Shown: in pieces, positions 13,764 to 17,965 of the stretch
Position numbering within the stretch: position 1 is the stretch's first letter
Layout: every line of letters starts with the position of its first letter
From: Mucisphaera calidilacus
GTDB lineage: Bacteria; Planctomycetota; Phycisphaerae; Phycisphaerales; Phycisphaeraceae
Direction: 5' to 3'
DNA length: 32,000 bases
NCBI RefSeq assembly: GCF_007748075.1
Contig: NZ_CP036280.1
Coordinates: forward strand, 210,001-242,000
Notes under the pieces: model-generated
The model's input: the letters and a program-made list of their open reading frames with translations, nothing else
What the model was told of the DNA's origin: nothing
Databases searched by the model: none
Program-made: the position numbers and the translations under genes

Positions 13764-15965
13764 ATGTCGACGCGCCGTCCCCTCTTCAGCGAGTCGTGGT
13801 ACCGGGTGGCGGAGATGGCGCCCCGACTGCGCCCGCAGATCGACACCTACCGCCAGCACTACCGCGGACGGCTCTGGCACGTGCTCCGCGACCCCTCGAA
13901 CAACAAGTTCTTCAGGCTCGATGAGGCCTCCTACCGATTCGTCGCGATGCTCAACGGCCGGCGGACCATCCGCGAGGTCTGGGAAGCCTGCTGCGACCAG
14001 CTCCAGGACCAGGCGCTGACTCAGGGCGAAGCCATCCAGGTCATCGGCCAGCTCTACACCTCCAACCTGCTCGACGCCGACGTCTCCGCCGACACCGCCG
14101 GCATCTTCGACCGCTACAAGCAGCGACGCCAACGCGAGGTGTCGGGCTACATGATGAACCTGCTCTTCGCGCGGATCCCCATCTACGACCCCGACGCGTT
14201 CCTCGACAAGTGGGTGCACCTCACACGATGGGCCTTCGGTCCCGTCGGCCTCATCCTCTGGTGCCTGCTCGTCGGCGCGGGGCTGTTCGTGGCGATCGGA
14301 CGCTCGGACGCCCTGCTCAGCCAGGCATCCTCGGTGATCGCGCCGCGCAACCTCTTCTGGCTCTACATCGCGATCGTCGTCATCAAGCTCTGGCACGAGA
14401 TGGGACACGGCTTCGCCTGCAAGCACTTCGGGCAGCAGCGCCACGCCGGCGGCGAGGTCCACACCCTCGGCGTCATGCTGCTCGTGCTCGTCCCCGTGCC
14501 CTACGTCGACGCCTCCTCCTCGTGGGCGCTGCGCAACAAGTGGCACCGCTTCTGGGTCGGCGCCGCGGGCATGTACTTCGAACTGGCGGCGGCGGCGCTC
14601 GCCACCTTCGTCTGGGCCGCCACCAACGCGCAGACGTCCTTCTACGGCGTCCCGGTCCACGCCCTCGCCTACAACGTCATGTTCATCGCAGGCGTCAGCA
14701 CCATCCTCTTCAACGCCAACCCGCTCATCCGCTTCGACGGCTACTACATGCTCTCCGACGCGCTCGAGGTCCCCAACCTCATGCAGCGGTCGAAGGACTA
14801 CCTCTACTACCTCGTACGCAAGTACCTCTACGGCGTACGCCGGCCCATGAACCCCGCCCACGTGCACGGCGAAGCGCCCTGGCTCTTCAGCTACGCGATC
14901 CTCTCGAGCATCTACCGCGTCTTCCTCCTCACCTCGATCCTCCTGTTCGTCGCCGACCAGTTCTTCTTCCTCGGCATGATCTTCGCCATCTCCGGCCTCA
15001 TCGGCTGGGTGGGCACGCCCCTCTGGAAGTGGGTCAAGTACCTCGCCACCAACCCCGAACTCGCGCGCACACGCTCACGAGCCGTCATGGCCTCCGCGAC
15101 GCCGATCGTGCTCCTGCTCGTCCTGCTTGGCGTCGTGCCCGCGCCGGAACACGGACGGGCCGAGGGCGTGGTCGAGGCCGATCGCCGAGCGGTCGTCTTC
15201 GCCGGCGCCGACGGCGTGCTGGATACGATCGCCGAGCAGTCATCGACCGTCCCGCGAGGCGGCCTCCTGATGCGCGCGCACAACGCACAACTCGAGAGCC
15301 AGCAACGCGAGCTCGTGGCACGTCTCGAGCAGATCCGCGTGCAGCTCGCGCAGGCACGCACCGAGAGCACGGCCGAGGCCCAGGCACTGCTCGAGCAGCA
15401 GACGGCCCTGCGTCAACGGCTCGACCGGGTCAATCAGCAGATCGTCTCGCTCGAGGTCACCGCGCCGTTCGAGGGCCGCTGGGACGCCCAGCCCGAACTG
15501 GTGCCCGGCCTCTACCTCCGGCAGGGCGAAGCGATCGGCACCTTCCTCGACGACCGCGACCCGCGCGTGCGCATCATCGCCGACCAGTCACTCGGCCCGC
15601 GTCTCTGGGCCCGGTACGCCGAGGGCCTGCTGTCCGTCGAGTTCCGCGTCTCGGGCCTGCCCGAGACCACACTCAACGGCGCCATCACCCGCGTCGCCCC
15701 CGCCGGCCAGAGCCAGCTCCCCAGCCCCGCGTTATCCATGGGCGCCGGCGGCCTGATGCCCACCGACCCCGAAGACCCCAATGGACAACGCGCCGCAGAA
15801 CCCTTCTTCGAGGTCCGTATCACCCCCGAGATCGAAACGGAACACCACGGCTACCTGCGCCCCGGCCAACGCGTCGTCGCACGCTTCGCGCTCGGCTACC
15901 GACCGCTGCTCTGGCAGTGGTGGGACGCCCTCTCACGCCTGCTCCAGGAACGGTTCCAGGTCTGA
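13764..15965 (+). CDS. fusion protein: PqqD/RRE-like N-domain + M50 (site-2 protease) zinc metalloprotease membrane domain + C-terminal HlyD-like adaptor domain
   Basis: - HEMGH at nt 14394-14408, inside a TM helix.
- NANPLIRFDG (NxxPxxxxDG, the second S2P motif) at 14712-14741.
- N-terminal FFRLDEASYRFVAMLNGRRTIREVWEAC...GEAIQVIGQLYTSNLL resembles the PqqD family.
- From about residue 463: RAEGVVEA..., a coiled coil, then LEVTAPFEGRW, which is HlyD-like.
- The gene starts 8 nt after the upstream stop. Confidence 0.8.
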   Translation: MSTRRPLFSESWYRVAEMAPRLRPQIDTYRQHYRGRLWHVLRDPSNNKFFRLDEASYRFVAMLNGRRTIREVWEACCDQLQDQALTQGEAIQVIGQLYTSNLLDADVSADTAGIFDRYKQRRQREVSGYMMNLLFARIPIYDPDAFLDKWVHLTRWAFGPVGLILWCLLVGAGLFVAIGRSDALLSQASSVIAPRNLFWLYIAIVVIKLWHEMGHGFACKHFGQQRHAGGEVHTLGVMLLVLVPVPYVDASSSWALRNKWHRFWVGAAGMYFELAAAALATFVWAATNAQTSFYGVPVHALAYNVMFIAGVSTILFNANPLIRFDGYYMLSDALEVPNLMQRSKDYLYYLVRKYLYGVRRPMNPAHVHGEAPWLFSYAILSSIYRVFLLTSILLFVADQFFFLGMIFAISGLIGWVGTPLWKWVKYLATNPELARTRSRAVMASATPIVLLLVLLGVVPAPEHGRAEGVVEADRRAVVFAGADGVLDTIAEQSSTVPRGGLLMRAHNAQLESQQRELVARLEQIRVQLAQARTESTAEAQALLEQQTALRQRLDRVNQQIVSLEVTAPFEGRWDAQPELVPGLYLRQGEAIGTFLDDRDPRVRIIADQSLGPRLWARYAEGLLSVEFRVSGLPETTLNGAITRVAPAGQSQLPSPALSMGAGGLMPTDPEDPNGQRAAEPFFEVRITPEIETEHHGYLRPGQRVVARFALGYRPLLWQWWDALSRLLQERFQV

Positions 15966-17965
15966 TGGTCGGCTCGACCCCCGATTCCGACCTCGCCGCA
16001 CCGCCCAGCCAGCTCTGGCGCAACCTCTCGCGACCGGCCAAACCGCCCAAGCTCCCGCGCGGCCTCGACGGCTTCTGGAACCTCGCCACCGGACGCATCG
16101 TCCCGCTCATCCCGCGCACCCGTCGCTACCTCCAGCGCGCCCAGCGGATCCACGAGGCCGCCGAGGCGCACCGCACCGCCGCCGTCCCCGCACTCGACCA
16201 GCGGGTCGAGGACCTGCGAGCCACCTTCCGCAAGGGGCGCGCCGAACGCGAGCACGTCGACGAGGCCATGGCCCTGATCGTGGAGCTGGCCGACCGCACG
16301 CTCGGCATGCGGCCCTACGTGGTCCAGGTCGCCGCCGGCCTGTCGATGTTCGACGGCTGCCTCGCCGAGGTGGCCACCGGCGAGGGCAAGACGCTCATCG
16401 CGACCCTCCCCGCGATCCTCGCCGGCTGGCGCGGCCGCGGCTGCCACGTCGTCACCGTCAACGACTACCTCGCCCAACGCGACGCACAGACCATGGGGCC
16501 GCTCTACCGCAAGGCAGGCCTGCGCGTCGCCTCCGTCCACCAGGAACTCAAAGACGACGAACGCCGACAGGCCTACCTCGCCGACGTCACCTACCTCACC
16601 AACAAGGAAGTCGCCGCCGACTACCTGCGCGACCGGCTCAAGCAGGGCAAGGCACGCGGGCTCGCCTCGACACTCGTCGACGCCATCACCACCGGACGCG
16701 GGTCCTATGGCCGGGGGATGGTCCAGCGCGGGCTCGCCTGCGCCATCGTCGACGAGGCCGACTCCGTGCTCATCGACGAGTCGGTCACACCCCTGATCAT
16801 CTCGACCGAGGCCGACAACGAAGACCAGGCCCAGGCGTTCAAACAGGCGGTCGCCATGGCCGACCAGCTCGAACGCGACCGCGACTACAAGGTCGTCGCC
16901 CGCTACAAGGAAATCGAGCTGACGCGCGCCGGACGCGAACGCTCACGCGAGATCGCCGAGTCCCTCGACCTCTCAGGCGTCTGGTCGACGCCACGCGGCC
17001 GCGAAGAACTCGTGCACCAGGCCCTCTCCGCTAAAGAGCTCTTCCTGCCGGGCCAGCAATACGTCATCCAGGAGGGCAAGGTGGTGATCGTCGACGAGTC
17101 GACCGGCCGCCTCATGCCCGACCGTTCCTGGCGGCACGGCCTCCACCAGGCCGTCGAGGCCAAGGAGGGGCTGGACGTCAGCGGCGCCAAGGAGACACTC
17201 GCCCGCATCAGCTTCCAGCGCTTCTTCCGCATGTACGAGAACCTCTCGGGTATGACCGGCACGGCATGGGAAGAACGCTACGAGTTCTGGGAGGTCTACA
17301 GCCTCGCAACCGTCCGATTCCCGACGCACCGACCCCGGATCCGCGAGGAGATGCCCGACCGCGTCTTCGCCTCCGCCGAGGCACGCTGGCTCGCGGTCGT
17401 CGAGGAAATACGCCAGCTCCACGCCACCGGGCGCCCGGTCCTCATCGGCACACGCTCGGTCGAGGCCAGCGAGAAACTCAGCTCGCTCCTCGCCGCGCAA
17501 GGGATCCACCACGAGGTGCTCAACGCCGTACGCCACGCCGAGGAAGCCGCCATCGTCGCCCGGGCCGGCGAACGAGGCCGCGTCACCGTCGCCACCAACA
17601 TGGCCGGCCGAGGCACCGACATCAAGCTCTCCCGAGGCGTCGCGGAACTCGGCGGGCTCGCGGTCATCGCGACCGAACGCCACGAGTCAGGCCGCGTCGA
17701 TCGGCAGCTCTTCGGACGCGCCGGCCGCCAGGGCGACCCCGGCTCAGCCGTCTGCTTCGTGAGCCTCGAAGACGAACTGATCAAACGCTACACACGCGCC
17801 GTCGACCGCGCGATCCTCTCGAACTACGCCGGCAACCCCGTCGCCGCCAGCTACCTCTTCAACCAGGCCCAGGGCCGAGCCCAGCGCATGGCACGGGCCA
17901 ACCGCAAGGGCGTCCTGGAACACGACCACTGGCTGGAGAAACACCTCGGCTTCGCCCCGGAATAG
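15965..17965 (+). CDS. SecA-like DEAD-motor ATPase (NBD1-PPXD-NBD2), truncated after the start of the helical scaffold
   Basis: The ATG at 15965 overlaps the upstream TGA (TGATG). Motifs: [12 protein letters not shown] (Walker A, nt 16373-16396), [32 protein letters not shown] (DEAD box at 16751-16762), [30 protein letters not shown] and [25 protein letters not shown]. The protein is 666 aa and ends shortly after [10 protein letters not shown]. This is the last part of the 14210..17965 ORF in the track. Confidence 0.85.
   Translation: [666 protein letters not shown]

Follow-up and report, generated by a model that had tools for sequence, protein, structure and literature searches.

We describe a short SecA-like ATPase of 666 amino acids (aa), encoded at positions 15965–17965 of a 32,000-nucleotide stretch of Mucisphaera calidilacus (Planctomycetota, Phycisphaerae; contig NZ_CP036280.1, positions 210,001 to 242,000), to which we refer as the window. 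All coordinates below are those of the window, and features lie on its forward strand unless the reverse strand is named. In our judgement this protein is rather likely to be the cytoplasmic ATPase of a dedicated, envelope-spanning, type-I-like exporter, which would work without SecYEG and whose cargo would be proteins that bear the LEPR-XLL motif. The reading is carried by the domain content of the short SecA, by the conserved operon in which it is encoded, and by a linkage between that operon and LEPR-XLL genes that is found from either side. The protein family itself was described by Kamneva, Poudel and Ward (PLoS One 2015, PMC4452313).

The short SecA

The open reading frame (ORF) at 15965–17965 comprises 666 codons by translation of the window, and its product is identical (100%) to an M. 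calidilacus protein listed by NCBI under the name "preprotein translocase subunit SecA". Pfam places SecA_DEAD on residues 53–442 (E = 3e-96). Inserted in this first nucleotide-binding domain (NBD1) is the preprotein cross-linking domain (PPXD), matched by SecA_PP_bind on residues 288–398 (16826–17158; E = 7e-26), and the second nucleotide-binding domain (NBD2), matched by P-loop_SecA (PF21090; E = 2e-60), begins at residue 458 and occupies 17336–17794. The Walker A motif ATGEGKT (residues 137–143, 16373–16393) and the DEAD box, or Walker B motif (residues 263–266, 16751–16762), are both in place, with T138, G139, G141 and K142 in the first and D263, E264 and D266 in the second invariant in 56 relatives; NBD2 carries two 10-residue motifs, at residues 544–553 and 584–593, that are invariant in the family. 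Every motor motif that the initial annotation of this DNA had listed, together with the PPXD insert, is thus found, and we regard the protein as a conserved and probably active motor.

The same annotation had claimed that the SecY-engaging C-terminal half is missing and that the protein stops at the start of the helical scaffold, and this is borne out. Pfam gives no match to SecA_SW, the wing and scaffold domain, in the short SecA. In the alignment with Bacillus subtilis SecA that had been proposed as a check, and that maps the domain boundaries, residues 51–656 pair with residues 11–602 of the roughly 840 in the solved structures. Since this alignment stops at residue 602, the short SecA ends inside the first long scaffold helix: the wing, the two-helix finger and the C-terminal tail of canonical SecA are missing, and of the scaffold helix only about the first 40 residues are present. 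An AlphaFold2 model built on 56 family members (predicted local distance difference test, pLDDT, 86; predicted template-modelling score, pTM, 0.85) likewise has as its last element a single helix, residues 625–663 (17837–17953), a scaffold-helix remnant that aligns to about residues 570–602 of B. subtilis SecA and bears the conserved tail D-x-W-L-x-x-x-L-G-F. The best superposition of the model is on the SecA of the substrate-engaged SecA-SecY complex 6ITC (template-modelling score, TM, 0.84; root-mean-square deviation 2.6 Å). From the missing scaffold, wing and two-helix finger we infer that the protein would be unable to serve as a standard SecYEG motor, as had been suggested earlier, and this fits all the data.

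What the family has lost at its C-terminus is accompanied by three additions over canonical SecA. An N-terminal extension of about 50 residues (residues 1–50, 15965–16114), in which W18, R19, G33, D35, P50 and R51 are conserved in the family alignment, replaces the canonical N-terminus, the alignment with B. subtilis SecA beginning only at residue 51. NBD1 contains an insertion of some 20 residues (226–249, 16640–16711), which lies opposite a gap in B. subtilis SecA, is found throughout the family alignment, and has a pLDDT of 62–75 in the model. The third addition is the conserved C-terminal tail. All three are presumably docking elements.

Because the protein has only about two thirds of the length of a normal SecA, it might be asked whether 15965–17965 is a truncated or frameshifted canonical secA, that is, a pseudogene or an assembly error. 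We reject this explanation, to which we attach hardly any probability, on the ground of family-wide conservation. More than 270 relatives among the matches listed, about 640–700 aa long, share the tail R-K-x-V-L-x-x-D-D-W-L-D-E-x-L-G-F-A-G-x-E and then stop. The 120 closest database clusters listed are nearly all 640–700 aa long and without SecA_SW, and the same length holds for nearly all of a further 150 clusters listed in a search of representatives at 50% identity, which reaches down to 40% identity to the short SecA and whose members end in D-D-W-L-D-E-x-L-G-F-A-G-x-E or in L-A-F-S-G-x-x-E. A second search, seeded with a distant member, returned proteins of the same length from Desulfobulbaceae, Desulforhopalus and Desulfuromusa. 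Moreover, the stop codon of a convergent gene lies at 17981, 15 nt past that of the short SecA, and the N-terminal extension and the NBD1 insertion are missing from canonical SecA. The earlier expectation that no frameshift hides a normal C-terminus therefore holds, and the protein is a naturally short SecA-like ATPase and a further member of a known family. Scanning a genome collection with only the short SecA yielded no confirmed relative, the patterns chosen being too specific and the source region apparently absent or masked.

In annotation, genes of this kind should not be named "preprotein translocase subunit SecA", nor be counted as housekeeping secA in analyses of completeness or essentiality.

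Another explanation keeps SecYEG in the picture: the short SecA would be an accessory, SecA2-like motor that brings a subset of substrates to the ordinary translocon, and its neighbours would be only post-translocation partners. An identity of about 40% to SecA and SecA2 structures and a complete polypeptide clamp agree with this, and known SecA2 proteins, too, have reduced C-terminal domains. Those proteins, however, still have both the scaffold helix and the two-helix finger; the short SecA family stops after about 40 scaffold residues. All NCBIfam equivalog models for SecA and SecA2 match strongly, and all score below their curated cut-offs: the canonical models NF009538 and TIGR00963 give 604.6 against 814 and 592.8 against 800, and the SecA2 models fall far short, with 504 against 930 (TIGR03714), 449 against 725 (TIGR04221), 541 against 1085 (TIGR04397) and 411 against 1100 (NF012136). 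The family also forms a separate clade in the tree of Kamneva et al. (PMC4452313), and no secY2 or accessory Sec gene is linked to it in any locus. We consider a SecA2-like role unlikely.

The cassette and its conservation

In the window the short SecA is the third of three genes in a row. The first (11860–13755) encodes a protein that has a GAF domain, a single membrane span and a periplasmic adaptor (HlyD or membrane fusion protein, MFP) domain, matched by HlyD_3, HlyD_D23 and, weakly, GAF in Pfam and by RND_mfp in NCBIfam. The second (13764–15965) encodes a 733-aa fusion of a PqqD-like domain, a site-2-protease-like polytopic membrane domain and a periplasmic adaptor, as assigned from Pfam, NCBIfam and an AlphaFold2 model; we call it the M50-like protein. 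Its TGA overlaps the ATG of the short SecA at 15963–15965 (GTCTGATGG). Convergent to these genes, at 17981–18796 on the reverse strand, lies the gene of a small periplasmic adaptor of 271 aa with an N-terminal membrane anchor (RND_mfp, 133.5 bits against a cut-off of 94.9).

The longest frame of this small adaptor gene, 17981–19402 on the reverse strand (473 aa), runs antisense through ruvA (18813–19523). Both overlapping frames have high third-position GC, and Pfam backs ruvA on the forward strand; a 271-aa adaptor that starts at 18796 fits the evidence better. Automatic gene callers could over-extend the gene through ruvA.

Six loci reached through SecA homologues (L001–L006; three from Phycisphaerae and three from Desulfobacterota) contain the same cassette genes. 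When the genome collection was scanned with the M50-like protein, at least 562 species gave matches, and 80 further loci were retrieved (L007–L086); these come from Planctomycetota, Verrucomicrobiota, Desulfobacterota, Nitrospirota, Alpha-, Beta- and Gammaproteobacteria, Elusimicrobia, Spirochaetales, Fibrobacter and Bacteroidales. The order GAF-adaptor, M50-like-adaptor, short SecA, all on one strand, is found in about 70 of the roughly 75 loci whose contig is long enough, in at least eight phyla, and nearly all related loci have the GAF-adaptor as the leading gene of the cassette. The neighbour set published by Kamneva et al., namely an M50-like HlyD protein, a GAF-HlyD protein and a further HlyD/biotin-lipoyl protein, is present in the window, in L001–L006 and in most of L007–L086. 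Orthologues of the small adaptor have the same convergent position in L001–L003 and elsewhere lie on the same strand as the cassette, upstream or downstream. A TolC-like gene adjoins the cassette in 25 of 85 distinct loci, often in the order outer-membrane efflux protein (OEP), small adaptor, GAF-adaptor, M50-like-adaptor, SecA. No ABC transporter was found in the window, and none is conserved across the 85 loci.

The initial annotation had suggested that the short SecA is recruited to the adjacent membrane proteins. The overlap of start and stop codons and the conserved gene order support this.

Three loci (L023, L054 and L057) have the M50-like-adaptor gene without a short SecA within 10 kb downstream, though the contig continues; either the SecA gene lies elsewhere in those genomes, or the module there is a SecA-independent variant. 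In 24 loci a DUF3467 protein of about 110–130 aa is encoded directly upstream of the GAF-adaptor on the same strand (L001, 5435–5806; L003, 5494–5877; and 22 others). These loci belong to Planctomycetota, Nitrospirota and Proteobacteria, and the window has nothing comparable. The DUF3467 protein may be a further accessory component. The idea that it is a SecB-like chaperone found no support, a profile comparison with Escherichia coli SecB giving 0.3% probability, and no solved structure matched DUF3467.

Linkage to LEPR-XLL proteins

Immediately upstream of the cassette, at 7540–11787, lies the gene of our candidate cargo, a secreted-type protein of 1415 aa in which Pfam finds two Golvesin_C stretches, fn3 and a dockerin. 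The gene starts with GTG, has an AGGAG site 6 nt upstream of it, and ends 72 nt before the GAF-adaptor gene. No Sec-type signal peptide was found in its product, whose N-terminus reads SQTHAPSSDNTVRFESLEDRVLLSAV. Residues 14–26 (7579–7617) form a LEPR-XLL motif, R-F-E-S-L-E-D-R-V-L-L-S-A, which is recognised by the NCBIfam profile NF012209 "LEPR-XLL" with 20.1 bits against a curated cut-off of 17; within the window, only the 7540–11787 protein fits the strict LEPR-XLL pattern. Giant genes beside cassettes in other loci begin likewise (...LYHLESLEPRLLLTT, ...ALLFEELEPRLLFSAD, ...TLLFEELEPRLLFSAD), and other cassette neighbours score 22.0, 25.4 and 30.0 bits, with one, at 14.9, below the cut-off. 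The motif has been noted in proteins of about 8000 aa in Vibrio, and the two papers found to mention it tie it to no export system.

To measure the association we counted it from both sides. Starting from the cassette, an ORF with a LEPR-XLL motif, always N-terminal in a long frame, lies directly beside a cassette gene in 21 of the 85 related loci, the window not counted. In these loci the motif never scores below 10.9 bits; reversed-sequence controls reach 6.6 bits at most.

Conversely, scanning metagenome contigs with the back-translated motif E-L-E-P-R-x-L-L-S-A-D gave 120 loci, of which the motif profile confirmed 115. Where at least 5 kb of DNA is available upstream of the motif, a short SecA is found there in 23 of 32 loci; the corresponding counts are 12 of 19 for 3–5 kb, so that 35 of 51 loci with at least 3 kb have one, and 9 of 17 for 2–3 kb. 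The short SecA is on the strand of the motif in 49 of 50 cases, and its stop codon mostly lies 1–2 kb ahead of the motif, which is the space of a small adaptor gene.

The N-termini themselves have a common form, namely a basic stretch with a median net charge of +4 and, after it, [LV][FLM]EELEPRxL[LF]SAD. Only 4% of them have a 12-residue window with a hydropathy above 2, and they therefore lack the hydrophobic core of a Sec signal. The proteins carry domains of extracellular type, such as dockerin, fn3, cadherin and Big_9.

A probable protease fused to an adaptor

The M50-like protein combines three modules, since it has a PqqD match, invariant protease motifs and an adaptor fold. The first module is a cytoplasmic domain like PqqD and the RiPP recognition element (RRE; RiPP, ribosomally synthesized and post-translationally modified peptide), residues 27–102 (13842–14069), which Pfam PqqD matches weakly on residues 39–102 and which the AlphaFold2 model of the protein (pLDDT 84) folds as three strands followed by three helices. 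Many homologues come with a precomputed match to PF05402, and one is named PqqD family chaperone. The second module is the protease-like membrane domain. Its HExxH zinc-binding and catalytic motif (H211, E212, H215; 14394–14408) is invariant in 74 orthologues from many phyla, as are N317, N319, P320, L321 and D325 of the second site-2-protease motif, N317-x-N319-P-L-x-x-x-D325-G (14712–14741). Kinship to peptidase M50 is distant, the Pfam match to Peptidase_M50 (PF02163) on residues 201–286 scoring 21.2 bits against a gathering threshold of 27.2. The third module, the last 270 or so residues, folds like MacA, MexA and AcrA, with a target TM of up to 0.71. One chain would thus join a module that binds peptides to an intramembrane protease, probably active, and to a periplasmic adaptor.

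These modules invite a reading in which the giant neighbours are not cargo at all. The cassette would mature and export small ribosomal peptides, as peptidase-containing ABC transporters do: a short precursor, bound by the PqqD-like domain, would lose its leader to the metalloprotease, and the peptide would be expelled by SecA together with the adaptors. The best NCBIfam matches of the M50-like protein are indeed RiPP leader proteases, namely the daptide intramembrane metalloprotease (E = 4.7e-44, with a score of 151 against a cut-off of 300) and YydH/LiaK (21.8 against 225), and the JGI name of the family is "putative peptide zinc metalloprotease"; PqqD domains, moreover, are typical leader-recognition elements of RiPP pathways. 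Yet the neighbourhoods inspected contain no RiPP-modifying enzymes, and all-against-all clustering of ORFs of at least 90 aa from the 85 loci gave no further widely conserved neighbour, in a screen that is blind to short precursor genes, none of which was specifically sought. A SecA clamp motor also seems excessive for a short peptide, and the tight two-way linkage to giant LEPR-XLL genes would be left unexplained. We therefore think that peptide maturation is improbable as the function of the cassette.

The invariant protease active site could also mean that the output of the module is cleavage and not export. It would then be a device for regulated intramembrane proteolysis or quality control, in which the GAF domain senses a signal and the SecA-like ATPase unfolds a membrane-associated substrate for delivery to the site-2-protease domain. 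The sensory GAF domain in the first cassette gene suits such a device, and Kamneva et al. (PMC4452313) suggested a regulatory role for that protein. On the other hand, each cassette has three separate periplasmic adaptor domains, which together with the TolC-like gene in 25 of 85 loci point to envelope transport, and the linked LEPR-XLL proteins are built of domains of extracellular type. We give this alternative, too, only a small chance.

A proposed export machine

Our preferred reading, export of LEPR-XLL proteins, may be spelled out as follows. The machine in the window would have four parts: the short SecA, the fusion of PqqD-like domain, protease and adaptor, the GAF-adaptor, and the small adaptor; in many relatives a gene for a TolC-like outer-membrane channel is added to the cluster. 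The short SecA would provide the motor and the polypeptide clamp, without the parts that dock on and insert into SecY. A large unfolded protein with an N-terminal basic stretch and LEPR-XLL motif would be captured by the PqqD-like domain. The SecA clamp, docked through its N-terminal extension, its NBD1 insertion, its C-terminal tail or several of these, would then thread the protein, N-terminus first, through an inner-membrane assembly made of the protease-like membrane domain and the adaptor anchors. The intramembrane metalloprotease would trim the leader, and a conduit of adaptors and TolC would carry the protein across the periplasm and the outer membrane to the cell surface.

Several points weigh against this scheme. 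Its weakest point is that no component is an obvious or recognised protein-conducting channel, and no site-2 protease is known to form one. Classical type I substrates have C-terminal signals and are exported by ABC transporters, so the analogy with type I secretion is partial only. No TolC-like gene was found in the 32-kb window; type I systems often encode TolC elsewhere. In about three quarters of the cassette-centred loci no LEPR-XLL gene is seen next to the cassette; the contigs are short in many of these cases, and the cargo may be encoded elsewhere. The metagenome linkage samples only the E-L-E-P-R-x-L-L-S-A-D variant of the motif. That the LEPR-XLL peptide SSDNTVRFESLEDRVLLSAVTE is the ligand of the PqqD-like domain (residues 27–102) is a guess. 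In Methylobacterium extorquens the genes of the protease, the SecA and the small adaptor are barely expressed in exponential phase (PMC4452313). Finally, we infer every step of the mechanism from the domain content of the motor, the active sites, the operon and the two-way LEPR-XLL linkage.

If the scheme is true, it would explain how the widespread LEPR-XLL proteins leave the cell, many of which are large and of secreted type, and which, as far as they were sampled, lack a Sec-type signal peptide. It would also mean that a SecA motor can couple to something other than SecY, and that TolC-type envelope conduits have a new kind of energising component. The link to LEPR-XLL gives an orphan module a concrete and testable cargo and signal. 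Its interest lies as well in the size of the family, which is very large and spread over many Gram-negative phyla (the M50-like partner alone occurs in at least 562 species genomes), and which is experimentally untouched, no member having been characterised.

Other genes in the window

Elsewhere in the window, the reverse strand at 22279–25551 encodes a 1090-aa protein that has no Pfam match and in which repeats of about 110 residues (..NTG.ITF.NSGFSN.E.L.L...VTLTGGG..) can be seen by eye. It ends in a PEP-CTERM-like sequence (IPEPAGLTILGLGCALLRRR), which points to a second, different sorting signal for surface proteins within the same 32 kb. Three probable envelope or secreted proteins follow in a row at 25914–29005, also on the reverse strand: a pilin-like protein with a prepilin N-terminal methylation motif and DUF1559, a DUF4465 protein with a PEP-CTERM motif, and a dockerin protein of 502 aa. 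The match of a PurH-like ORF at 6163–7377 on the reverse strand to the bienzyme model is confined to the AICAR-transformylase part (profile positions 78–311), with none found to the rest of the model.

Comparison with known systems

The closest known system is the one described in 2015. Kamneva et al. (PMC4452313) reported secondary SecA_DEAD domain proteins that have lost all or most of the wing-scaffold domain, that form a clade apart from the canonical SecA of the same genomes, and that are additional to canonical SecA in the genomes examined. As neighbours they listed three HlyD-domain proteins, one with weak M50 similarity, one with GAF and one HlyD/biotin-lipoyl protein, sometimes with an OEP; they proposed type-I-like secretion with SecA as the ATPase, and stated that the biological role was completely unknown. 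Domain content, neighbours and phyla, Planctomycetes included, match those of the window, and nothing essential differs: the window holds the whole published cassette, that is, GAF-adaptor, M50-like-adaptor, short SecA and convergent small adaptor, and its short SecA is a secondary SecA_DEAD protein with NBD1, PPXD, NBD2 and the first scaffold helix only. The initial annotation had missed this published family and its HlyD, M50 and GAF neighbourhood, together with the likely cargo gene immediately upstream, the N-terminal extension and the NBD1 insertion. The 2015 paper (PMC4452313) mentions no substrate or cargo, no LEPR motif and no PqqD domain, and M50 similarity only as weak. What our sequence comparisons add to the M50-like protein is a putative site-2-protease active site with invariant residues and a PqqD-like, probably leader-binding domain. 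In the searchable literature we found no later paper on the module, nor any assignment of cargo and signal to it.

Among SecA variants, the engineered E. coli fragment SecA-N68 has a deregulated ATPase and no translocation activity. Its boundaries are nearly those of the short SecA, with NBD1, PPXD and NBD2 and without the helical C-domain (PDB 5K9T, PMC5603524), and Foldseek matches our model to 5K9T with a probability of 1.0. SecA-N68 is a laboratory fragment, however, whereas the natural family adds the N-terminal extension, the NBD1 insertion and the conserved C-terminal tail. With the SecA2 of Actinobacteria and Firmicutes the short SecA shares the reduced C-terminal domains, and it would share the standing of a second SecA paralogue and the restricted substrates; SecA2, in contrast, retains scaffold and finger and works with SecYEG or SecY2, and the NCBIfam SecA2 cut-offs exclude the short SecA. 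Giant proteins of Omnitrophota and Actinobacteria embed SecA_DEAD and preprotein-binding domains without scaffold or wing, and their authors propose that these help to export giant proteins (bioRxiv 10.1101/2023.11.21.568195; eLife 2021, PMC8195603). The likeness is one of domain content: there the motor is fused into the giant protein, while the motor in the window is a protein of its own, 666 aa long, whose gene shares an operon with those of adaptors and a protease.

RiPP leader machinery, with its PqqD-type elements and the HExxH proteases of daptide and YydH, shares with the cassette the pairing of a PqqD-like domain and an M50-type HExxH membrane protease. The cassette protease differs in being fused to an adaptor and linked to SecA and giant proteins, not to small precursors or modifying enzymes, and in scoring below the cut-offs of those families. 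The name PVC-SS, as used by Zhang et al. (2012), refers to the Photorhabdus virulence cassette, which is not related to the system in the window.

Type I systems and tripartite pumps (HlyBD-TolC, MacAB-TolC) have in common with the cassette the adaptors of MacA/MexA fold, a TolC-like partner in many loci, and very large, repetitive surface proteins. We put at about even the chance that the cassette represents a distinct class of Gram-negative secretion system, composed of a short SecA, an RRE/site-2-protease/adaptor fusion, a GAF-adaptor, a small adaptor and a TolC-like channel, in which the N-terminal LEPR-XLL motif would be the targeting and leader signal and giant surface proteins would be exported N-terminus first, without SecYEG or an ABC transporter. 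From the type I systems it differs in that the ATPase is SecA-like and no ABC transporter is present, in that three proteins instead of one carry an adaptor domain, and in that the putative signal, LEPR-XLL, is N-terminal and not C-terminal.

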